The position numbers and the translations under genes were made by a program. From Anaeromyxobacteraceae bacterium (GTDB lineage: Bacteria; Myxococcota; Myxococcia; Myxococcales; Anaeromyxobacteraceae): a stretch of 64,000 nt of DNA. This document shows positions 16,641 through 30,854 of this stretch, piece by piece. Numbering within the stretch: position 1 is the stretch's first letter; each line of letters starts with the position of its first letter. The DNA lies in assembly GCA_047602405.1 (NCBI GenBank), contig JASGHJ010000001.1, positions 1,664,001 through 1,728,000 on the forward strand, in the 5' to 3' direction. The notes beneath the pieces are model-generated. The model was not told where the DNA came from and did not search any database. It was given only the letters and a program-made list of their open reading frames with translations.

Positions 16641-19160
16641 TCACCTCGCCACGAAGGTGCGCAGGGCGACGCTGCCCCCGTGGCCCGCCGTCGAGGACAG
16701 GCCCACCCAGGGTGTGAAGAGGAGATCGGCGGTCCAGGTGTACTTCGCGTCGGCGAAGTAGGTGGCCCGCCAGCCGTACGTGCCGCCGGAGGGCAGCCCG
16801 ATCCCGAGGGCGGTGAGGTCGGGGACCGTCACCGTGTCCGCGCTGGCGAACACGGTGAGGAACGGGCCCGTGGTGGGGTACCTCGGGGACAGCGTGAAGT
16901 AGCGGTAGCCGTCGCCGCCCGTCACCGTCAACGCGTCACCTGGGCCGATCCCGGTCGCGCCCGCCGCCGGGGACACGGCGGTGGGCGCGGGGCGGAGCTC
17001 GAGGGCGACGCCCGCCTCGCCGGGTACGACGATGACGCTCGCGTTCGTCGTGTCGTTCGACGCATCCGAGGCGGTGGCGCGCGCCGTGAACCGCACCCCG
17101 GGGATCACCGGGGCGGGGTAGCTCCAGGCGCCGGCCGCGGCAGGCGCGAACGGGAGCCCCATGCCGAAGCCCGGCAGGCGCAGCGTCGGGGAGAGCCGGA
17201 CGTTCACGTGGCCGGCGGGGACGAGGAGCGTTCCGGACACCGCCGCCGAGGCGAGGGCGGGGCCGTCGAGGGCCAGCTCGACGCTGGCGTCGATCGCGTC
17301 CGTGACCGGCGGGCTCGCCTTCAGGAACCGGCCCCACGCCGCGGGGGCGCCGCCGGCCCCGGGCTGCCACTCCAGCGCGTAGACGTCGAACGGCTGGGTG
17401 GGCGGCCCGACCCAGCTCGCGAAGAGCGAGCCGGCGGCGGTGTCGCCTGCGCCGTGGTCGAACGCGCCCGCGGCCGCGGCCGAGACGCGCACCGAGAGGC
17501 CCGGGGTCCGCCCGGTCACGGTGTAGGAGAGCGTGGTGTCGCGGGACGCGGCGAAGCCCCAGGCGATCCGGTCGGCGGTGAGCCCCTGGCCGATGGTCGC
17601 GCCCCCTTCGAACGGGAACACCACGTCGTAGGGCGGATGGACGCCGTGGAAGGTCAGGCGTCCCGACGCGGGCGCGCGCTGCACCTCGCCGCCGAGCATG
17701 ATCTTTCCGGAAGGGCTCGCCCAGCCGTCGCCCGGGTCGAACACCTCGACGTCCATGCCCTCGGGACCGACCACGAGGACCGGAACCTCCACCCTCGCCT
17801 CGCCGGCCTGGATGCCGATCGTCGCGGTCGACGTGCCGACCTGGGCGGGCGGCGTGTACACGACGGCGTCGCCGTCCTGGGCCAGCGTCCCGGGGCCACG
17901 CGAGAGCGTGAACGTGCGGGAGAGCCCGGCGGGCGTGGTGGCGGTCTCGAGCCTCACCGGCTTCCCGCCGGCCAGGGCCACCGCGCGGGGCGGATGGACC
18001 TCGAGCGCGTCGACGAGCGGCGCGGGGTGGAGCACCACGGAGGCGGTCGCGGTCAGGCACCCCGCGATGGCGTAGAGGGTCGTGCCGGACGCCGAGGTGA
18101 GGCCGCTCGCCGGCGGCGGGGCGTACGAGGTTGCGGTGCCCTCCTCCGCGACGAGCGCTCCCCGGTTCGTCGGGTAGAGCGCCCAGCGCACCGGCCCGTG
18201 GGCCCCGCCGGCGAGGAGGGCGGTGACGGCGGTGGGGGGATCGCCCGCCGCGAGCTCCAGCGTGGCGGGCTCGATGGCGAGCGTGCCGACCTGCTTCACG
18301 GCGATCGCGGTGGTGGCGCTCGCGGAGAGGCCCCCGTACCCCGCGACGGTCGAGGTGACCGTGGCGGACTCACCCTCCGTGTACACGCACTCCGCCGGGG
18401 GCAGGTAGCTTCCGGTGTCGCCCGTGGCGCTCACGCTGCCGCGGCCGGCGGTGACCGCGAAGGCGACCGGGGCGCTGGCGTTCGCGGCGGCCGCCGCGAG
18501 CGCGACCGGGGCGCCCCCGAAGGTCGCCTCGGCCGCCGCGGGGACGGCGAGCGTCGGGGCGAGGTGCACGGTGACCGTGGCGTGCGCGACGAGGTCGCCG
18601 AGCGTCGCGGTGAGCTCGACCGGGGTCCCCGCGCCGAGCGCAGGCGGCGGCGTGAAGGTGGCCAGGTTGCCGGCCGAGGCGAGCGTGCCCGCCGCCGGCG
18701 TCGACCAGACGACGGTGCCGGCCGCGCCGCCGGACGGGACGGCCTCGAGGTGCACCACCGCGCCGCCCACCGCCGTGTCGGCCGACGAGGCGGTCAGGGT
18801 GAGCGCGGGCACCGGGGCGGGCTTCACGGTGAGGGTGGCCTTCGCGGAGCGCCCGGCCGCCGAGGCGGTCACCGTCACCTCGGTGGCCACGCCCACGGCC
18901 GCGGGCGGGAGGTAGCGCGTCGAAGGCCCCGACGCGCTCGAGAGGGCCCCGACCGCCGGGGCGAGGCTCCACGCGATGGTGGCGCTCGAGTGGGTGAGCG
19001 TGGCGGTGAGCTCCACAGGGCCCGTGCCGGCCACGAGCGTGGCGGCCGCGGGCGTGACCTCGAGCGCAGGCGGAGCGGGGTCGCCGGGGCCTCCGGTGAC
19101 TCCCTCACCGGTGCAGGCGGCGAACGCGGACGCCAAGCAGACGACGAACCAGGACCTCAT
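16641..19160 (-). CDS. Large lipoprotein with tandem Ig-like repeats
   Basis: Lipobox FAAC; repeated W-S...G-x-L...Y-x-P-P modules. Confidence 0.75.
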
Positions 19161-19286
19161 GGTCGACCCCCCAGCGCCCCACGGCGTCTCCGGGCTGGAT
19201 GCCGCGGAGGCGGACGGGGCGTGAAGGATGGACAGCGGGCCGGGGAGGATTCGACTCCGGGCGGCGACGCCCTGGGCAGCGGCGGC

Positions 19287-20078
19287 TCAGAGCGCCTTGC
19301 GGAGCGAGCGCACGAACCGCCGTGCCCGCTCCGCGCGGGCCGCGCGGGTGCCGGGCGCGGCCACCTTCTTCACGATGGCGCTCCCCACGACGACGCCGTC
19401 GGCGAGCTTCCCGAGCTGCCGCGCCTGCTCCGGGGTCGAGACGCCGAAGCCGATCACCACCGGCACGCTCGCCTTCGCGCGGACGGCGGCCACGAGCGCG
19501 CCGATCTCGCCGGCCACCGCGCTGCGGGCGCCGGTCACGCCGGTGACCGAGACGAAGTAGACGAACCCGGTCGCGGCGCGCGCCGCGGCCTCGACGCGAG
19601 CGGGGCCGGAGGTGGGCGCCACCAGGAACACCGAACGGACGCCGCTCCTCGCGAGCGCGGGGGCGAGCTCGCCCGACTCCTCCGGGAGGAGGTCGGGGAT
19701 GATGAGCGCGTCCACGCCGGCCTTGCCGCAGTCGGCCGCGAAGCGATCGAGGCCGTGGGCGAGCATGGGGTTGAGATAGCCCATGAGCGCGATGGGGACG
19801 TCGCACCGGGCGCGGACGTGCGCCGCGACCTCGAGCACCTGCTTCGTGGTGGTCCCGTGCGCGAGCGCGCGCTCGGCCGCGGCCTGGATGGTCGGGCCGT
19901 CGGCGATGGGATCCGAGAAGGGCACGCCCAGCTCGAGCAGGTCGGCCCCGCCCTCGACGCAGGCCATCGCGACGGTCTTCGAGGTCGCGAGGTCGGGGTC
20001 GCCGGCCATGACGTAGGTGACGAGCGTCGGCCGGCCCTCGGCCCTCGCCCGGTCGAACGCGGCCTGGATGCGGTTCAC
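19287..20078 (-). CDS. trpA: Tryptophan synthase alpha chain
   Basis: [21 protein letters not shown] and IGFGVS motifs. Confidence 0.97.
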
Positions 20079-21346
20079 CGATGCCCCCTCTTCTTCGTCT
20101 TCTTCCCCGTCCGCCCCGAGCGTAGGCCCGCGGAGCGGGCCGGAGACGAGGGGCGCGCCGCGAGCGCCCTGCGCACGTGATCCACGTCCTTGTCGCCGCG
20201 GCCGGAGACGTTGACGACGACGAGGCCGTCCGGCCCGAGCGCCTTCGCGACCTTGCGCGCCGCGGAGACCGCGTGGGCGGTCTCGAGCGCCGGGATGATG
20301 CCCTCGGTGCGCGCGAGGTACGTGAGCGCCTCGAGCGCCTCCTGGTCGGTCGCCTGCATCAGCGTGAGCCGGCCCGAGTCCTTGAGGTACGAGAGCTCCG
20401 GCCCGACGCCCGGGTAGTCGAGCCCGGCGCTGATCGAGTGGGCCTCGGCGATCTGGCCGTGCGTGTCCTGGAGCACGTAGCTCCTGGAGCCGTGCAGCAC
20501 GCCCGGCGTGCCCTTCGCGAGCGCCGCGCCGTGCTTGCCCGTCGAGAGCCCGAGCCCGGCCGCCTCGACGCCCACCAGCTTCACGGTGGCGTCGTCCAGG
20601 AAGCCGGAGAAGATCCCCATCGCGTTCGACCCGCCGCCGACGCACGCGACCACCGCGTCGGGCAGCCGGCCCGCGACCTCGAGGCACTGCCGCCGCGCCT
20701 CGCGCCCGATGACCGACTGGAAGTCGCGCACGAGCGCGGGGTAGGGGTGCGGCCCGGCCACCGAGCCGATGATGTAGTGCGTGTCGCGGACGTTCGTGAC
20801 CCAGTCCCGCAGGGCCTCGTTCATCGCGTCCTTGAGCGTGCGCGAGCCGGCCTGGACCGGGATCACCCGCGCCCCCATCAGCTCCATCCGGAAGACGTTG
20901 AGCGCCTGCCGCTCGACGTCGAGCGCGCCCATGTAGACGTCGCACGGCAGCCCGAACAGCGCCGCGGCCGTCGCGGTCGCCACCCCGTGCTGCCCCGCCC
21001 CCGTCTCCGCGATGATGCGCGTCTTGCCCATCCGCCGGGCGAGGAGCACCTGCCCGAGGGTGTTGTTCACCTTGTGCGCCCCGGTGTGGCACAGGTCCTC
21101 GCGCTTCAGCAGCACGCGGCACCCGCCCGCGTCCGCGGACATGCGTCGCGCCTCCCCGAGCGGCGTCTCCCGCCCCGCGAACCGCACGAGGAGCTCCTCG
21201 AGCTCCGCCTGGAACGCCGGCTCCGCGCGCGCCGCCTTCCACGCCGCCTCGAGCTCGTCGAGCGCCGGCACGAGCGTCTCCGGCACGTACCTTCCTCCGT
21301 ACGTCCCGTACCGTCCAAGCGCGTCCGGCAACGTCCCCGTGCTCAT
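20075..21346 (-). CDS. trpB: Tryptophan synthase beta chain
   Basis: [27 protein letters not shown] and SGRGDKD; C-terminal extension derived from a repeat. Confidence 0.97.
20107..20153 (-). repeat. REP-like element, copy 5 (inside trpB 3' end)
   Basis: Reverse complement reads CCCCTCGTCTCCG-GCCCGCTCCGCGGGC-CTACGCTCGGGGCGGACGG. Confidence 0.8.
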
Positions 21347-22038
21347 ACGTCCCTCTCCCGATGCAGAGGCGGATGCGCCGCCCCCCGCGCCCCCGCCACG
21401 AACGCCCTCATCTTCCCCTCGTCCTTCACCCCTGGCGCGCTCTCCACCCCGCTCGCCACGTCCACCGCCCAGGGGCGAACCACCCGCACCGCCTCCCCCA
21501 CGTTCTCCTCCCGCAACCCACCCGCGAGCACGATCTTCATCCCCTTCGCGACCGCCCTCCGGGCAAGGTCCCAGTCGAACACGACCCCCGCCCCCCCGAA
21601 CCCCGCCGACGGCGCATCGAGCAGCACCGCCACCGCCCCCGCCGCGAGCCACGCCGCCCCCGCCTCCACGTCGCCCTCCGACGAGACCCGCAGCGCCTTC
21701 ACGACCGGCACCCCGAGCCCGCGCGCGAGCTCGAGCGGCTCGTCCCCGTGCAGCTGCACCGCCTGCACTCCCGACACACGCACCGCCTCCACGAGCTCCG
21801 CCCGCGAGAACCCGACGGTCACCGCGACGGCCGCGACGCGCGAGGGCAAGAGCTTCACCAGCCCCGCCACCTCCGCCGCCGCGACGTACCGCTTCGACCC
21901 CGGCCACAGGTTGAACCCGATCGCGTCCGCGCCCGCCTCGACCGCCGCCCGCACGTCCTCCGGCCGGCGCACGCCGCAGATCTTCACGAGCGGCCGCGCG
22001 GCCGGAGGCGCGCCCGGGTCGAGGAACCGCGGGATCAC
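21343..22038 (-). CDS. trpF: Phosphoribosylanthranilate isomerase
   Basis: VKICG, QLHGDE, LAGGL and VDVASGVE motifs. Confidence 0.95.
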
Positions 22039-22814
22039 GCCGTCATCTCCCGGATCATCGCCCCGGGATCCGCCGCGCGCACGAGCGCCTCGCCCACGAG
22101 CAGGTTCGCCGCCCCCGCCCGCCGGAGCCGCCGCGCGTCCTCCGCGGTCCGCACCCCGCTCTCCGCGACGCCTCGCACCGAGGCCGGCAGCCCGGGCAGG
22201 ATCCGCTCGGACGCCGCGAGGTCCACCTGGAACGTGCGCAGGTCGCGGTTGTTCACGCCCACGATCCGCGCCCCCGCCGCGAGCGCGACCTCGACCTCGG
22301 CGGCGTCGTGCACCTCGACCAGCGCGGCGAGGCCGAGGGCCTCGCAGTCGTCGTGGAGCCGCCGGAGCACGTCCGGCGCGAGCGCCGCCACGATGAGGAG
22401 CGCGGCGTCCGCGCCGTGCGCGCGGGCCTCGAGGAGCTGGTAGCGGTCGACCGTGAAGTCCTTGCGGAGCAGCGGCACGCCCACCGCCGCGCGCACCGCG
22501 GCGAGGTCGGCGAGCGAGCCGCCGAAGCCCGGGCCGTCGGTGAGGACCGAGACGCAGGCCGCGCCCGCCGCGGCGTAGCGCCGGGCCTGGTCCACCGCGT
22601 CGAGCCCGCTCGCGATGGCGCCGGCCGACGGGCTCGCGCGCTTCACCTCGGCGATCACCCGCACCGGGCCGCCGGGCAGGGACAGCGCCGCCTCGAACGG
22701 CCGGGGCGGGGCGGCGTCGCGGGCGCGCGCCTCGAGCTCGCGGTCGGGCTCGGTGGCGCGGCGCGCGGCGACCTCGTCGCGCTTGCGGGCCAGGATGTCG
22801 GCGAGGAACTTCAT
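22035..22814 (-). CDS. trpC: Indole-3-glycerol phosphate synthase
   Basis: [22 protein letters not shown] and AESG motifs. Confidence 0.96.
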
Positions 22815-23821
22815 GGCGCCCGCGTGGCGGCGACGAGCCGGGCGAGCTTGTCGGCCGCGTGGCCGCGGTCGATCGCCTCGGCGCCGACCCGGACGCCCTC
22901 CGGGAGGTCCTTCGCGGCGCCGGCGCAGACGAGCGCCGCGGCCGCGTTCGCGAGGGCGGCGTCGCGGCAGGCGCCCTTCTGGCCGCCGAGCACCTCGCGC
23001 AGGATGGTCGCGTTCCGCTCGGCGTCGCCGCCCAGGATCTCGCGCTCCTCGTGGCGGCCGAGGCCGAGGTCCTCGGGCTGCACGGTGAAGCGCTCGACGC
23101 CCGCGCCCTTCACCTCGCAGACGTGAGTCATGCCGGTGACCGCGATCTCGTCGAGCCCCGCGCCGTGCACCACGAAGGCGTGCGCCGCGCCGAGGGCCGA
23201 CAGCACGCCGCCGATGATGGGGACCCACCGCGGCTCGTACACGCCCATGACCTGGTGGCGCGCGCCGGCCGGGTTCGCGAGCGGCCCGAGCAGGTTGAAG
23301 ACGGTGCGCACGCCGAGCTCGCGCCGGATGCCGGCGACCGCCTTGAAGGCGGGGTGCAGGCGCGGCGCGAAGAGGAAGCCGATGCCGACGACGTCGATGG
23401 CGCGCTCGACCGCCTCCTTCGGCGCGTCGACGTTGACGCCCAGCGCGGCGAGCACGTCCGCCGACCCCGAGCGCGAGGAGACCGCGCGGTTGCCGTGCTT
23501 CGCGACGGTCACGCCCGCGCCCGCCACGATGAACGCGGCGGTCGTCGAGATGTTGAAGGTGTGCCGCCCGTCGCCGCCGGTGCCGCAGGTGTCCACGAAG
23601 ACCGGCTTCGCGACGTGGACGCGATCGACGCGGGCGCGCATGACCTCCGCCGCGCCCGCGATCTCGTCCACCGACTCGCCCTTGAGCCGGAGCGCCGCGA
23701 GGTACGCGCCGACCTGCGCGGGCGTCGCGCCGCCGTCGGCGATCTCGGTCATGACCTCGGCCGACTGGGCGCGGGTGAGGGACTTCCCGTCGAGGAGCGC
23801 GGCCACCGCCTGCTGGATCAT
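22811..23821 (-). CDS. trpD: Anthranilate phosphoribosyltransferase
   Basis: DTCGTGGDG, NIST, KHGNR and NLLGPL motifs. Confidence 0.96.
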   Translation of the reverse strand: MIQQAVAALLDGKSLTRAQSAEVMTEIADGGATPAQVGAYLAALRLKGESVDEIAGAAEVMRARVDRVHVAKPVFVDTCGTGGDGRHTFNISTTAAFIVAGAGVTVAKHGNRAVSSRSGSADVLAALGVNVDAPKEAVERAIDVVGIGFLFAPRLHPAFKAVAGIRRELGVRTVFNLLGPLANPAGARHQVMGVYEPRWVPIIGGVLSALGAAHAFVVHGAGLDEIAVTGMTHVCEVKGAGVERFTVQPEDLGLGRHEEREILGGDAERNATILREVLGGQKGACRDAALANAAAALVCAGAAKDLPEGVRVGAEAIDRGHAADKLARLVAATRAP

Positions 23822-24411
23822 GGCGCCTCCACGGGCGCGAGCCGCGCGAGCCAGTTGCCGAGGAGCCGCTTGCCCTCGACGGTGAGGATGGACTCGGGGT
23901 GGAACTGCACGCCCTCGACCTCGAGGCCCGCGTGGCGGAGCCCCATGATCTCGCCCTCGTCGGTCCAGCTCGTGACCTTCAGGGCGGCGGGGAGCGTCTC
24001 GCGCTCGACCACGAGCGAGTGGTACCGGCCCGCCTCGAACGGCCGCGAGAGCCCGGCGTAGAGGCCGGTGCCGTCGTGGAGCACCGGGCTCGCCTTGCCG
24101 TGCACGATGCGGTGGTTGCGGACCACCTTCCCGCCGAAGGCCTGGCCGATGGCCTGGTGGCCGAGGCACACGCCGAGGATCGGGAGCACGCCCGAGAGCT
24201 CCCGGATCGCCGCGAGCGTGACGCCCGCCTCGTCCGGGGTGCACGGGCCCGGCGAGAGCACGAGCCCGTCGGGCCTCCGCGCCCGGATCCCCGCGACGTC
24301 AATCTGGTCGTTGCGGTGGACCTCGACGTCCGCGCCGAGCTCGCCCAGGTACTGGACGAGGTTGAAGGTGAACGAGTCGTAGTTGTCGACGAGCAGGAGG
24401 CGCGGGCTCAT
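23818..24411 (-). CDS. trpG: Anthranilate synthase component II
   Basis: DNYDSFT, SPGP, GVCLGHQ and QFHPES motifs. Confidence 0.95.
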   Translation of the reverse strand: MSPRLLLVDNYDSFTFNLVQYLGELGADVEVHRNDQIDVAGIRARRPDGLVLSPGPCTPDEAGVTLAAIRELSGVLPILGVCLGHQAIGQAFGGKVVRNHRIVHGKASPVLHDGTGLYAGLSRPFEAGRYHSLVVERETLPAALKVTSWTDEGEIMGLRHAGLEVEGVQFHPESILTVEGKRLLGNWLARLAPVEAP

Positions 24412-25932
24412 GACCGGCTCCTCTTCTTCTTCGCGGCCGGCCGCTTCATCACCCGCGCCCCGGCCGTGAGCCGCTGCTCCGCCTGCGCCACCGCCGTGAA
24501 CACCGCGCGGGCCTTGTTCATCGTCTCCTGGTACTCCGCCGCGGGCACCGAGTCGTAGACGACGCCGGCCCCGGACTGGGCCGAGACGCGGCCCTTCGAC
24601 GCCATCAGGGTGCGGATGGCGATGCACATCTCCATGTCGCCGCCGCGGTCGAAGTAGCCGACCGCCCCCGCGTACGGGCCGCGGCGGGCGGGCTCGAGCT
24701 CGTCGATGATCTCCATCGCCCGCACCTTGGGCGAGCCGCTGACGGTGCCGGCGGGGAAGCTCGCCCGCAGCACGTCGACCGCGTTCTGCCCCTCGGCGAG
24801 CCGGCCGCGCACCTCCGAGACGAGGTGCATCACGTGCGAGTACCGCTCGACCACCTTGAGCTGGGCCACCTTCACGGTGCCGGTCGCCGCGACGCGGCCC
24901 ACGTCGTTGCGGCCGAGGTCGACGAGCATGACGTGCTCGGCGTTCTCCTTCGGGTCGGCGCGCAGCTCCGCCTCGTAGCGGCCGTCCTCCTCGGGGTCCT
25001 TGCCGCGCGGGCGGGTCCCGGCGATCGGGCGCAGGGTCACCTCGCCGGCCTCGAGCTTCACGAGCGTCTCGGGCGAGGAGCCCACGAGCGCGCGGTCCCC
25101 GTCCTTCACGAAGAAGAGGTACGGCGACGGGTTCACCCGCCGGAGCGCGCGGTAGATCTCGAACGGCGCGAGGTCGGTCTCGGCGTCGAAGCGCTGCGAG
25201 AGCACGATCTGCTGGCAGTCACCGGCGGTGATGTAGGCGCGGGCGCGGGCGACCGCGGCCTCGAACACCTCGCGCGGCACCCGGGGGCGGAGCTCGGCGT
25301 GCCGCCTCGGCACCGGGCGGCGGTCGCGCAGCGGCCGGGCGAGCACCGCGAGGCGCCGGCGGAGCTTCCCGAGCGCGGCCCGGTAGAGCCGCCGCGGGTC
25401 GTCGTCCGCGCCGACCCGGACCTCGCAGATCACGTGGATGGAGTGGCGGAGGGCGTCGAACGCCACGACCTCGTCGAAGTCCATGAGGAGGACGTCGTCG
25501 AAGCCGGACTCGTCGGCCTTCGCGATGGGCACCCGCGGCTCGAACTCCTTCACCGCGTCGTACGAGACGTGGCCCACCAGGCCGCCCGAGAAGCGCGGCG
25601 TGCCCGGGACGCGGACCGCGCGGTGCGAGGCGAGCGCGGCGCGCACCACGCCGAACGGGTCGCCCGGCTGCCCGAGCCTCCAGCGCAGCACGCTGCGCGG
25701 CCCGGCGCCGAGGAAGGAGAACCGCGCGCTGCGCTCCCCGCCCTCCACCGACTCGAGCAGGAACGCGTGCTTCTCGCCGCGCGAGAGCTTGAGGAAGGCC
25801 GACACCGGGGTCTCGGTGTCGGCGTCGACCTCGACCCGCACCGGGACCGCGCGGCCGGGCCGCGCGAGCTCCAGGAACGTCTCGAGGTCGGGGACCGCCT
25901 TCAGATCAGCCGCGCCAAAGAAACACCGTCAT
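24408..25932 (-). CDS. trpE: Anthranilate synthase component I; the ATG at 25932 is out of frame by one base (candidate programmed +1 frameshift, or an error)
   Basis: [27 protein letters not shown] and PAGTVSG motifs. The TrpE-like N-terminus ([13 protein letters not shown]) extends upstream of the GTG at 25841 with no in-frame ATG/GTG/TTG. Confidence 0.93.
25906..25932 (-). promoter_or_regulatory. 8-codon zero-frame [11 protein letters not shown] with prfB-like CTT-TGG slippery site
   Basis: GGAG SD 9 nt upstream; the ATG overlaps the panD stop (ATGA); sequence ATG ACG GTG TTT CTT TGG CGC GGC TGA. Confidence 0.6.
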
Positions 25933-26340
25933 GACGTGAGGCTCCGTTCCCGCGATGCACGCTGGGGGCCGGCGACCTCGACGGCGTTCCCGTTCGCGAT
26001 GTGGTTGTGCGCGTCGACGAGCACGACCGTGGGCTTCCACTCCCGCGCCTCGGACTCTTCCATGTCCGCGAAGGTGGCGAGGATGACGAGGTCGCCCGGC
26101 TGGTTGAGGTGGGCGGCCGCGCCGTTGATGCAGATGACGCCGCTGCCCCGCTCGCCCTTGAGGGCGTACGTCTGGAGCCGGGTGCCGCGGGTGACGTTCC
26201 AGACGTGGACCGCCTCGTGCTCCCAGAATCCCTGCCGCGTCCATGAGCGCCTCGTCGATCGTCACGGAGCCCTCGTAGTCGAGGTCCGCGTGGGTCACGG
26301 TCGCGCGGTGGATCTTGGACTTGAAGAGTGTGCGCCGCAT
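25929..26340 (-). CDS. panD: Aspartate 1-decarboxylase (apparent +1 frameshift near 26225)
   Basis: [10 protein letters not shown] and YEG-SVTID cleavage site, then in the next frame TYALKG...INGAAAH. Confidence 0.92.
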
Positions 26341-26392
26341 CGGGAAGATTTCGATCTGTACAACCCAATCCGACCCTGCGCAAGGCTTCCCC

Positions 26393-28223
26393 ATGACGAA
26401 GACCCTCGCCGCCGTCGCCGCGCTGGTACTCGCGGGCTGCGCCCATCCTCGCGCCGCCGCACCGGCGTCGCCCGCGCCGGCGGAGCCGGCGATCGACGCC
26501 GCCCGCGCCCGCGCCGAGGTGACCTGGCTCGCCGACCCCGCCCGCACGGGCCGGGGGACCGGCACCCCGGGCAACCCCGCCGCCGCGGCCTGGATCGAGG
26601 AGCGCCTCCGGGAGGCCGGCCTCGCGCCCGCCTTCCCGGGCGGCTACACGCAGCCGCTCGAGGCCCCGTACCAGGCCTCGCTCCGGCCCGGCAACGCGCT
26701 CTCGGTCGGCGCGCGGGCGCTCGCGCTCGGCGAGGGGTTCGTGCCCTTCGGCTTCTCCGACGACGGCACGGTGCGCGGCGAGCTCGTCTGGGCGGGCTAC
26801 GGCATCACCGCGCCGGAGCTCGCCTACGACGACTACGCCGGCCTCGACGTGAAGGGGAAGATCGTGCTCGTCGCGCAGGACTTCCCGCGCGAGGAGGACG
26901 CCGCCTCGCCCTTCCGCGACCCGCGCAACTACCGCTACGGCGAGTGGCGCCACAAGGCCGCGAACGCGCGCGACCACGGCGCGGCGGGCGTCGTGATGGT
27001 GCGCGACGGCTGGAACCACGCGGGCGCCGACACGCTGCCGCCGTGGAAGGGGCAGGTCGCCTCCCGCGCCGGCATCGTCGCGGCGCGCGCGACGGCGCAG
27101 GCGCTCGCCGCCGCCGACGTCAACGTGGCCGCGCTCGCCGCGCCCGGGCAGGTGGACGGGAAGCCCCACTCGCGGGCGCTCGGGGTCCCCGCCTCGATCA
27201 GCGCGGCCATCGAGCACGAGCACGCGACCACCGCGAACGTCGCGGCGCTCCTCCCGGGCGCCGACCCCGCCGTCGCGGGCGAGTGCGTGGTCGTGGGCGC
27301 GCACTACGATCACCTCGGCCTCGGGGGCGAGACGTCGCTCGCCCCCGATCGGCTCGGCCAGGTCCACCCCGGCGCCGACGACAACGCGTCGGGCGTGGCC
27401 GCGATGCTCGCGGTCGCCCGGGCGCTCTTCGCCGGGCCCGCGCCGCGCCGCACCGTCCTCTTCGTCGCGTTCGCCGCCGAGGAGATCGGCCTCCTCGGCT
27501 CCGCCGAGCTCGTGCGCGCCCCGCCGCCCGCGTGCCCGGTCGAGCGGATGTCGCTCATGGTGAACCTCGACATGGTCGGGCGCCTGCGCGCGCGGCGGCT
27601 CTACGTCGACGGCGCCGACACCGGCAAGGGACTCCGCGACGTCGTGAAGGCGGCCGCGGCGGGCCCCTCCGCGCTGCCGCTCGACCTCGCCTTCGGCGGC
27701 GACGGGAACGGCCCCTCCGACCACACGAGCTTCCACGCGCGGCGGGTCCCGGTGCTCTACCTCTTCACCGGCGCGCACGGCGACTACCACCGCCCGGGCG
27801 ACACCGCCGACAAGGTCGACGAGGGCGGGATCGCCACCATCGCCCGGCTCACCGCCCGCACGGTGGCGGCGGTGGCGGCGCTGCCCGCCCGGCTCGAGGT
27901 GGTGATGAGCGCGGGCGGGCCACCCTCGCAGGCCCGCGGCGGCGAGCGTGGGTACGGCGCCTACCTCGGCACCATCCCGGACTTCGGCGAGCGGAAGGCG
28001 CCCGGCGTGCTCGTGAGCGGCGTGAAGCCGGGCAGCCCCGCCGAGAAGGCGGGGATCGCGGGCGGCGACGTCCTCCTGCGCATCGGCGCGAGGAAGATGG
28101 CGAGCCTGCACGACCTCGTGGACGCGCTGCGGGCCGGTCGCCCGGGCGACGTCGTCGAGGTCGAGCTCCAGCGCGCCGGCGAGACGAAGGTCGTGAAGGT
28201 GACGCTGGAAGAAGCGGAGGTAG
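26393..28223 (+). CDS. M28 family peptidase lipoprotein with PA and PDZ domains (apparent extra base near 28209)
   Basis: Lipobox [35 protein letters not shown] and PDZ YLGTIP...GSPAEKAG; a likely stop TAG at 28221-28223 is one base out of frame. Confidence 0.88.
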
Positions 28224-28244
28224 CGGCGGTACGTTGGCCCCGGC

Positions 28245-30854
28245 GTGACCTCTCCCCTCGCAGCGCGGCGCCTGGAGGTGTTCGCGGCCGCCAGGGCGGA
28301 CGCCGGGTTCCTGCGGCTGTCGTCCGACCGGCTGCGCTTCTCGCTCGGGACCTCGCTCGCCGACCTGAAGGTGCCGGTCGAGGTCGCGGCGGACGTGCGC
28401 GCGATCGTGCAGGGCGCCATGGTCGAGGTGGCGCTCCTCGTCTCGAGCCAGCACCGGAGCATCCTCGGCGCCGAGCTCACCGACCGGATCATCCTGCGCG
28501 AGGAGTTCGCGCGGATGCCGCAGCCGCCCGCGCAGCTGTCGGCCCCGGGCGGCAACCCCGACCTCCGCACCGCCGCGCAGACCGCGCCCGCCGTGCACCC
28601 CGCGCTGTGGGGCGGCCTCGTCGGCGCGTGGATGGGGAAGGGCGGCCGGGGGCGATCGCTCGTCGCGCTCTGGATCGAGCTCCTCCGCCGCGGCTTCGAG
28701 GAGATGCGCCGGTGGCGGCGCCACGAGGAGACGCCCTACCTCGTCGCGCTCGTGCTCGCCGCCGAGACGCTCGCCGCCGAGCGCGCGCTGCGGGACGCCC
28801 TGCCGCCGCCGCCGGTCGACCGCTGGGTGTCCTCCGCGGCGATGGCGGCCGGCTGGCTCGCGGCGCGGACCGGCCTCGCCCGGGCGTGGCGCGACGCCGG
28901 GCTCGACCACGCCGACCCGCTCCTCGCCCGCCTCGAGGCGGTGCTCTCGCCCGGCGCGCTCGCGGGCGCCCGCGCCGCCGCGGCGGCCGGCGGCCTCACC
29001 GTCTACGGCTGCGAGCTCCTCGCCGGGATCCCGGCCGGCGACGCCCACGCCGAGGCGCTCGCGGGCGGCGCCGATCCCGCCGACGTGGAGGCGCTCGTCC
29101 GGCAGGCCGTCGACGCCGACCGGGAGGTGGCGCGCGCCGCCGAGCAGGCGGTGGCCGAGGCGCGGCTGCGTGACATGCTCGGCGAGGGCATCGTGCGCGC
29201 GGAGGCCGACGGGCTCGGGCCCGCGCTCGACCCGCTCCGCCGCCGCTTCACCGCGCCCGGCGTCATCGCCGCGACCATCGAGGACGAGGCCGAGCGCGCC
29301 GCCTTCGAGGCCGAGCTCGCCGCGCTCGGCAAGCGCACGCAGGACGGACCGCTCACGCCGCTCGCGCGCACGCTCTCGCGCTGGCGCGAGACCGATCCCG
29401 CGGCCTCGGTGGGGCTCGGGCACGGCGCGGCGCGGGACCAGTACGCCCGCGCCGCGACCACCTACCTCTGCGACGTCGCGCTCGAGCGCCGGGTCGCGCA
29501 GGCGCGCCGGCACCTCGTCGTCCGGACCGGCCGCGAGGCCGAGGGCGGCGCGCAGGTGGAGTGGGAGGCCGGCCGGCTCTACCGGTTCTCGGTGAAGCCG
29601 GGGCGCATCCTGCAGGACCGGCCGGACAAGCCGGTGGCGCACCTCTTCGCCGACATGAAGGACTTCACGCGGCGGACCGAGCTCCTCGGACAGGCCGCGA
29701 TGGCGGAGTTCCTCCGCAGCGCCTTCTACGGCCCGATCCTGACCCTGGCCCGCGAGCACGCCGGGGGGATGACCCACCTCTCCGACCGCGGCGGCGTCGC
29801 GGTGAACAACCTCATGGGCGACGCGATCAGCCTCTCCGGCGAGATCGGGTCCATGGTCGGCGTCTCCCGGGGGATCCGCGCCCACCTCGCCGGCATGGCC
29901 GCCCGCCTCGCGCGCGAGATCTCGCAGGAGGCCATCGCCCGCGAGCTCACCGCCATCGAGGCGGCGCACGGGGAGGCGGCCGCGGGGGCGGGGGCGGCGC
30001 GCGCGCAGCTCGAGGAGGCGCTGGCCGCGGAGCCGCAGGGGACGCCGCGGCACGCGGCGCTCTGGCACCGCGCGGTGCGCGCGCGCGCCGAGGAGGACCG
30101 CGTGCGCGGCGAGCGCGAGCGGGCGCTGGCGCGGGCGCGGGGCGAGGAGCTCGAGGCGGGCGTGTTCCTGTCGTTCGGGGCGCCGCCGGTGGTGGTCGTC
30201 GTCGAGGACGAGATCTTCGGCGTGAACCGCGTGGCGGTGGCCGAGAAGATCAACGAGTCGGCCCGCGGCACCGCCCGCGTGCCCTCCGCGCGGGCGCGCG
30301 CCGACGCCGCGCTCGCGCGGGAGCGGGCCCGGCCCGGCGCCGCCGGCGTCGCGCACGCGTGGTCGGTGTTCGTGGGCCAGCCGCTCGCCATCCCGATCCC
30401 GCCGGACCTCGAGGAGGCTGCGCTCCGGCAGCTCAGGCTGGGCGACGGCGCGGGCGCGATGCGCACGCTCTCGCCGCCGGTGCGCGAGGCGCTCGACCGG
30501 CTCGGGCGGCAGGACGTGGAGCGCCCGGGCGACGTGTGGAACGGCGGGGCGGCGCTCTCCGAGGAGGCGCTCGAGGCGTTCCTCGCCGACGCGGGCGCGA
30601 CACGGACGGTGAAGCGGCTCGAGCTCGAGCTCGAGGCGATCCCCCAGGCGCTGCGCGACCGCTGGTTCTACGGCGAGGAGCCGCTCACGCTCGTCGCCTG
30701 CTTCGACCCGGGCTCCGGCCGGCTCTCCGAGCTGTTCCGCCGGGTCGGGCGGGCGGCGTTCAAGGGGATGGCGGGGGTCACCGTGTGGGAGCTCTGCGCC
30801 GAGGGCGGCGGGCCTGGCGCCCTCGGCGCCGCCCTGGCCCCGACCTGGCGCTAG
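28245..30854 (+). CDS. Large protein with split class III nucleotide cyclase-like domain
   Basis: HLFADMKDFT, NLMGDA, GVFLSFG and KINESARG motifs. Confidence 0.6.
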   Translation: MTSPLAARRLEVFAAARADAGFLRLSSDRLRFSLGTSLADLKVPVEVAADVRAIVQGAMVEVALLVSSQHRSILGAELTDRIILREEFARMPQPPAQLSAPGGNPDLRTAAQTAPAVHPALWGGLVGAWMGKGGRGRSLVALWIELLRRGFEEMRRWRRHEETPYLVALVLAAETLAAERALRDALPPPPVDRWVSSAAMAAGWLAARTGLARAWRDAGLDHADPLLARLEAVLSPGALAGARAAAAAGGLTVYGCELLAGIPAGDAHAEALAGGADPADVEALVRQAVDADREVARAAEQAVAEARLRDMLGEGIVRAEADGLGPALDPLRRRFTAPGVIAATIEDEAERAAFEAELAALGKRTQDGPLTPLARTLSRWRETDPAASVGLGHGAARDQYARAATTYLCDVALERRVAQARRHLVVRTGREAEGGAQVEWEAGRLYRFSVKPGRILQDRPDKPVAHLFADMKDFTRRTELLGQAAMAEFLRSAFYGPILTLAREHAGGMTHLSDRGGVAVNNLMGDAISLSGEIGSMVGVSRGIRAHLAGMAARLAREISQEAIARELTAIEAAHGEAAAGAGAARAQLEEALAAEPQGTPRHAALWHRAVRARAEEDRVRGERERALARARGEELEAGVFLSFGAPPVVVVVEDEIFGVNRVAVAEKINESARGTARVPSARARADAALARERARPGAAGVAHAWSVFVGQPLAIPIPPDLEEAALRQLRLGDGAGAMRTLSPPVREALDRLGRQDVERPGDVWNGGAALSEEALEAFLADAGATRTVKRLELELEAIPQALRDRWFYGEEPLTLVACFDPGSGRLSELFRRVGRAAFKGMAGVTVWELCAEGGGPGALGAALAPTWR

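Follow-up and report, generated by a model that had tools for sequence, protein, structure and literature searches.

We have identified, at the head of the tryptophan operon of an Anaeromyxobacteraceae bacterium, a cassette built like the frameshift site of prfB in which a Trp codon replaces the stop codon. We propose, with a probability of roughly 0.8, that full-length TrpE is made only through a programmed +1 shift at this cassette, that the shift would become more frequent when charged tRNA-Trp is scarce, and that coupling would extend its effect to trpGDCFBA. It also appears likely that, by ribosomal frameshifting, the 14-nt prfB-like cassette places the entire tryptophan operon under the control of a cognate hungry codon, as a natural bacterial amino-acid sensor that is protein-free and structure-free.

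The window is the whole stretch of DNA analysed, 64,000 nucleotides long, and coordinates refer to it unless a contig is named. The site comprises the following features.

25906..25932 (-): leader ORF in the 0 frame, MTVFLWRG*, 8 codons, read from the sequence and regarded as the true trpE start
25932 (-): leader ATG, which overlaps the stop of panD (ATGA) after correction of a one-base assembly error in that gene
25924..25927 (-): internal Shine-Dalgarno (SD)-like GGTG, 3 nt 5' of the P-site codon, at positions -7 to -4
25921..25923 (-): E-site codon TTT, a freely varying position that is U-rich across Anaeromyxobacteraceae (comparison of 88 loci)
25918..25920 (-): P-site codon CTT, read from the sequence
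25917..25920 (-): slippery CTT-T, predicted to let tRNA-Leu re-pair from CUU to UUU, invariant in relatives
25915..25917 (-): A-site sensor codon TGG (Trp), followed in relatives by an invariant C that makes GGC the +1 A-site codon
25906..25908 (-): 0-frame stop TGA, two codons past TGG, which would end unshifted ribosomes
25902..25904 (-): in-frame CTG, one base past the leader stop, which may serve as a latent or leaky start
24408..25919 (-): body of trpE, read in the +1 frame and open for 503 codons

A sequence-only reading of the window had described an out-of-frame ATG, CTT-TGG, a nearby stop and TrpE in the +1 frame, with no in-frame ATG, GTG or TTG ahead of the TrpE-like N-terminus. The coordinates bear this out: read from 25919, the first such codon in the +1 frame is a GTG at 25841, codon 27. 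Read through the shift, the predicted product is a protein of 507 aa that starts MTVFL-GAADLK. CTTTGG occurs only twice in the window, both strands counted. As in a trpL-type attenuator, a leader ORF with a Trp codon stands ahead of trpE; here the Trp codon is this one TGG. The gene in the +1 frame is anthranilate synthase component I (TrpE), given its family match and its trp operon context; the top match is TIGR00564 (trpE_most) at 503.8 bits, slightly below the cut-off of 517.7, and residues 4-487 align with the solved anthranilate synthase chain 5cwa_A.

A rival reading is that the assembly placed one surplus T in an ordinary trpE, and in panD, 300 nt upstream, this assembly does contain an error of one base. 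That base, at 26227, is missing in the contigs of 4/4 public runs from a relative about 95% identical, so that the earlier caveat about +1 indels was justified in the panD case, the one examined. At the trpE site, by contrast, the contigs of the same four runs (relatives' contigs, not source reads) are gap-free and keep the T. No run contained half of the window's sequence words. The identical layout recurs in 88/88 loci of the family, records of cultured isolates included. The trpE site is real, and assembly error, its probability being negligible, was rejected.

Conservation within the family was assessed in 92 Anaeromyxobacteraceae genomes (family taken from the genome records), of which 88 gave a match to the trpE N-terminus and were all compared; the four genomes that gave none are 70-87% complete. 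Every one of the 88 loci has an out-of-frame start, GG[T/G]G-NNN-CTT-TGG-C in register, a 0-frame stop and TrpE in the +1 frame. The comparison with relatives that had been suggested for the window thus found its out-of-frame start, CTT-TGG and near stop kept, with no shared in-frame start, in 88/88 loci and in 11 more of another family described below. Positions -7, -6 and -4 are G throughout, -5 is T in 87 loci and G in one, and the seven bases CTTTGGC are invariant. The start that overlaps the upstream stop of the TrpE frame is ATG in 82/88 and GTG in 6/88. Ahead of CTT the leader has four codons in most loci (80) and 5-9 in seven others; in genome G111, the leader ATG stands 6 codons before CTT. 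The 0-frame stop (TGA 77, TAG 9, TAA 2) comes after 1-3 sense codons past TGG in 83/88 and after 7-8 in five, against a background of 7 stops in 10,560 codons of that frame in trpE bodies. Since three different stops and several leader lengths are in use, the cassette has evidently been under repeated selection. TTT and CTT had been called rare, and they are: in the 29,199 codons of the trpE bodies of the same 88 loci, TTT makes up 0.7% of Phe codons (9/1253) versus 88/88 at the slip site, and CTT 23 of 2657 Leu codons. No p-value is given for these counts, which are not independent events as the genomes are kin. These myxobacteria come from soil and sludge, and the cassette is present in the records of the cultured, non-pathogenic species A. 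oryzae, A. soli, A. terrae and A. oryzisoli.

In E. coli, shifting is promoted by E-site UUU, UUA and UUG and further increased by a hungry A-site codon, as outlined in PMC2377451. Among the 88 loci the E-site codon takes ten different forms (TTT 54, CTT 8, TTG 8), and 64 have UUU, UUA or UUG. This variation also bears on the idea that RNA polymerase slips at TTTCTTT, or that the mRNA is otherwise changed, to yield an in-frame message. Although the site is T-rich in the source genome, no invariant run is longer than TTT, some loci have CGT, GCG, AGT, ACA or TGG as the codon upstream, and such a change would account neither for TGG nor for the SD-like word; we hold such an origin of the message to be very unlikely.

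Outside the family, 138 genomes matched among 301 genomes of the order, and 34 stronger matches were compared, an unpublished genome (G197) being skipped. Seventeen loci that are more distant or paralogous were inspected by eye only. The cassette was found in 11/34 of these loci, spread over seven genera of a second family, with no panD in any. The eleven read GG[T/A]G-NNN-CTT-TGG-C, with leaders of 3 to more than 20 codons and a 0-frame stop within 2-12 codons; CTT-T and TGG-C are invariant in 11/11, and the SD-like word (GGTG in 10, GGAG in 1) keeps its spacing while leader length varies. In total, 99/99 cassette loci keep CTT-TGG-C and an SD-like word at fixed spacing, the E-site codon being free. 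The word at -7 to -4 is GGTG in 97, GGGG in 1 and GGAG in 1. As at a prfB site, the slippery CTT-T stands in the upstream frame in 99/99, but the A-site codon is TGG in 99/99 and not the RF2-specific stop TGA or TAA, and the gene is TrpE, not RF2, true prfB lying elsewhere in the genome. Two of the loci, in G204 (L135) and G237 (L137), have TGG in the E site as well (TGG-CTT-TGG) and hence two leader Trp codons; the internal SD of G204 is the canonical GGAG. In 12/12 longer loci (10 of the 11 and two family loci), the cassette stands at the front of trpEGDCF plus B and/or A. In G198 (L268), trpB is missing between trpF and trpA within the stretch examined.

The remaining 23/34 loci lack the cassette and mostly have ordinary in-frame starts, with G208, G164 and G272 ambiguous. 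Close TrpE relatives lacking it are G164 (L134), G208 (L132), G272 (L138), G411 (L265) and G327 (L266), and in G164 an apparent SD and an in-frame start are found near the codon-6 position. A draw of 401 genomes from the phylum added only G411 and G327, neither with the cassette. A pattern scan of 185,579 genomes, which required GGTG and a DxE/DTP motif and is blind to variants and to distant TrpE, archaeal ones included, gave 101 matches: 90 cassette-bearing trpE and 11 non-trpE, the latter read as chance. The 90 are by title myxobacteria, deltaproteobacteria or proteobacteria, and most of them belong to genomes counted above. A tree built from 68 N-terminal halves of TrpE, without G411, whose translation is cut at a stop, places 39/39 cassette rows in one branch (98/87) together with four rows that lack the cassette. 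Such a history needs four changes and would fit a single gain followed by three losses, provided that the midpoint root is correct.

The point at which TrpE coding begins was sought in the +1 frame of the 88 family loci. P10, F15, P21 and G22 are invariant as amino acids, each being encoded by 2-4 synonymous codons; D11, L12, L18, R23, A24 and P26 are almost invariant; the constrained stretch aligns with the N-terminus of 5cwa_A. By this substitution pattern, codons 10-26 are under protein-level constraint, and with invariant residues on synonymous codons from P10 onwards, ribosomes must therefore be in the +1 frame by codon 10. No start codon in that frame is common to all 88 loci: codon 27 (V27) is GTG in 60/88 only, and 13/88 lack any NTG in codons 0-12.

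Ribosomes could enter the +1 frame with no shift, by re-initiating after the leader at an NTG in codon 6 (CTG 25904 here) or at the codon-27 GTG. Codon 6 is CTG in 44 loci, GTG in 25, TTG in 5 and another codon in 14, which puts NTG in 74/88, an excess over trpE usage (CTG 35% of Leu, GTG 51% of Val); in 52/88 an NTG directly adjoins the leader stop on its 3' side. Annotated trpE starts scatter from about codon 4 to codon 31 among 120 homologues, often near codon 6, and the cassette-less relatives G411 and G327 have a good SD followed by an in-frame start at the codon-6 position, which may be an ancestral or a regained start. However, the codon-6 NTG is CTG in 44 of the 74 loci and lacks an SD (mean -2.2 kcal/mol), the 13 loci with no NTG in codons 0-12 would have no place to re-start there, and 4/11 loci of the other family have no ATG, GTG or TTG within 25 codons. 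The codon-27 GTG lies behind conserved coding sequence. Re-initiation also leaves the invariant CTT-T and the fixed SD spacing unexplained, and it would yield less TrpE under starvation, since codon 6 would lie beneath a ribosome stalled on UGG. We regard re-initiation in place of a shift as quite improbable; leaky basal TrpE expression from the NTG near codon 6 may bypass the programmed shift in part.

Upstream and downstream of trpE, the operon is arranged as follows.

26355..26383 (-): putative sigma-70-type promoter, TTGCGC, 17 nt, TACAGA, 14 nt upstream of the panD ATG, recognised by eye from 79 relatives
25929..26340 (-): panD (TIGR00223), its TGA overlapping the leader ATG (ATGA), the extra base near 26227 being an assembly error
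24411-23818 (-): trpG
23821-22811 (-): trpD
22814-22035 (-): trpC
22038-21343 (-): trpF
21346-20075 (-): trpB
20078-19287 (-): trpA

The genes from trpG to trpA (block 19287..24411, minus strand) were identified by family matches, and 4-nt stop-start overlaps occur at all seven junctions from panD through trpA. Given the overlaps at the other junctions, the start of the gene after panD is expected at the panD-overlapping ATG, yet this ATG is out of frame with TrpE. The TrpF of the window (21343-22038) has four Trp codons, TrpE one, and TrpC and TrpA none. TrpE has a single Trp in 103/120 homologues, and can therefore be completed during Trp shortage.

TrpE shares the frame of panD wherever panD is found, and the genome has a tRNA-Sec gene (G000:C2:1906940-1907035), two facts that would suit readthrough of the panD UGA, by a near-cognate tRNA or selenocysteine, into a PanD-TrpE fusion. 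Such readthrough predicts no conservation of the frame-0 start, the stop or TTT, however, and no conserved hairpin follows the UGA. The cassette is moreover kept without panD in 11/11 loci of the other family, and panD is lost or eroded with the cassette kept in six genomes of the family itself: G030 (L030), G071 (L120), G115 (L091), G107 (L113), G108 (L097) and G111 (L106). In G107, G108 and G111 the former panD ATG now reads into the 0 frame; the TrpE frame of G107 contains additional stops, neither the overlapping TGA nor the second ATG survives in G111, and the panD stub of G115 is in a different frame. Readthrough is thus extremely unlikely, and was rejected on the panD-less cassette loci and the lack of a consensus fold. 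The panD deletions in the six genomes are independent, leaving stub ORFs or a panD ATG fused to the leader, with the promoter and the cassette kept.

Hexamers of the TTGCGC/TTGATC and TAAGAA/TAGAAA types were seen by eye at the putative promoter position in the upstream sequences of 79 relatives, and a strict consensus promoter scan did not flag the putative panD promoter. As this promoter would lie only some 5-15 nt before panD, there would be no room for a leader attenuator. Two soil metatranscriptome runs yielded short pieces of relatives, mostly less than 95% alike, and none of the pieces listed bridges the site.

Bacterial prfB carries a site of this kind: in it a purine-rich SD-like word stands three bases 5' of CTTT, TGA-C follows, and tRNA-Leu slips +1 when RF2 is low (PMC12421855), the autoregulatory +1 frameshift treated also in PMC3711429. 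A prfB-like geometry had been claimed for the trpE site, and it matches the source genome's own prfB, GGGG-GCG-CTT-TGA-C, at equal spacing, with TGG replacing TGA. The proposed pairing of GGTG with the anti-SD is indeed predicted, though with a different part of it and at a strength below that of the genome's own prfB (-5.7 vs -9.1 kcal/mol). An SD of the GGAG type before the leader ATG, also part of the sequence-only reading, is present here but confined to the source genome and its nearest relative; most relatives show a sequence of the GGGTG or GGTGA type there. The source genome encodes tRNA-Leu(GAG), one tRNA-Trp(CCA) and tRNA-Gly(GCC).

A motif-free screen of 3883 coding-like ORFs, aimed at coding sequence that lacks an in-frame start, gave seven rows, short genes, GTG-started leaders and gaps of less than 12 codons being outside its scope; prfB came first (100.8) and trpE second (24.5). 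This screen and a motif scan of the source genome (9 rows of 12018 motif hits) gave only trpE and prfB, and no second amino-acid gene with a cognate cassette; codon-swap evidence for sensing is for that reason absent here. Two prfB-like GGGG-TTT-CTT-TGA-C words, at G000:C1:71070 (-) and C1:90420 (+), share an identical 12-nt upstream sequence, and one precedes a +1 frame of 462 codons; they are possibly the ends of a mobile element.

The switch had been proposed to need no attenuator, and none was found. No terminator-like site lies between the leader and trpE, where no spacer exists; Rfam gave no leader over window positions 19000-29000, only two weak irrelevant matches; and RNAalifold found no consensus fold in 80 aligned loci from -12 to +108. 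Attenuator hairpins were rejected on these grounds. Searches of the 98% complete genome for TrpR (PF01371), TRAP (PF02081) and the T-box (RF00230) gave 0 matches each, with controls detected, and control by these three was likewise rejected.

A +1 shift could also run at a roughly fixed rate, or answer mainly to an input other than Trp, such as tRNA-Trp modification or RF2 misreading UGG, and so set a low level of TrpE. Precedents exist for both inputs: RF2 variants are able to misread UGG (PMC13245932), and loss of MiaA imitates Trp starvation at attenuators (PMC13434334). Any slow codon starting with U or C could serve that purpose, yet TGG is found in 99/99 cassette loci and is confined to the head of the trp operon, and no other Trp-sensing device was found. 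We therefore judge a shift indifferent to Trp supply improbable.

Under a Trp-responsive shift, ribosomes finishing panD would re-start at the overlapping leader ATG. With CUU occupying the P site and UGG the A site, GGUG would pair with the 16S anti-SD and the weak E-site codon would leave. Where Trp-tRNA is ample, the ribosome would decode Trp and terminate three codons later; where it is scarce, the ribosome would pause, tRNA-Leu(GAG) would re-pair on UUU, GGC would be read and TrpE made. The 4-nt stop-start overlaps, perhaps together with polarity from untranslated trpE, would relay the switch to trpGDCFBA. The weaker internal SD, the codon-6 NTG in 74/88 loci and the four cassette-less TrpE inside the cassette branch speak against this mechanism.

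Frameshift screens can miss sites within 50 nt of a start, according to PMC3711429, and trpE-type sites would escape such screens because they are so close to the start. No report of a Trp-codon frameshift switch at trpE was found in open-access full text, subscription papers lying outside that scope. The hardware, of the prfB type with one base changed, is already known; its regulatory use at trpE was not found in print. If the proposal is true, trp regulation has one more mode in addition to repressor, attenuator, TRAP and T-box, and the start of trpE is miscalled in databases. Swapping the A-site codon could yield a compact sensor for other amino acids, and with the cassette in cultured species, one reporter experiment would be able to test the switch.

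Compared with prfB, the trpE site shares the SD-like word 3 nt before CTT-T, the C after the A-site codon, the position near the start, and a product needed only from shifted ribosomes. It differs in having the sense codon TGG in the A site instead of a stop, which here follows at least 2 codons later and can be of any of the three kinds, in its GGTG word, and in its predicted input, Trp-tRNA and not RF2. Curran and Yarus, and Sipley and Goldman, reportedly studied a version of the prfB site engineered to carry UGG in E. coli.

In starved E. coli, hungry-codon frameshifting likewise involves slippage in the P site while the aminoacyl-tRNA for the A site is in short supply, but it has been described as an error phenomenon (reviewed in PMC5009743), unlike the useful shift proposed for trpE. 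In its passages on the subject, this 2016 review knows of no hungry-codon shifting that gives a protein with a starvation-specific function; the trpE site, if true, would be such a case, in the best-studied biosynthetic pathway. Ty1 and ABP140 of yeast (CUU_AGG_C) resemble trpE in the P-site CUU, the slow A-site sense codon and GGC as first +1 codon; there, as far as PMC5009743 describes them, the slowness comes from a rare tRNA, with no SD stimulator and no feedback on amino-acid supply.

With trp attenuation (E. coli trpL; Pseudomonas trpL1/2, in the account of PMC13434334) the cassette shares a short Trp-codon leader ORF that senses charged tRNA-Trp before trpE. Unlike an attenuator, it has one Trp codon and no conserved hairpin or terminator, and its leader overlaps trpE and supplies its N-terminus. 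The +1 frameshift of antizyme senses polyamines. Ornithine decarboxylase antizyme, named in PMC2377451, thus shares with the trpE cassette the readout of a small molecule as a +1 rate; it is eukaryotic, has an A-site stop codon and makes an inhibitor, whereas the trpE cassette makes the first enzyme of its pathway.
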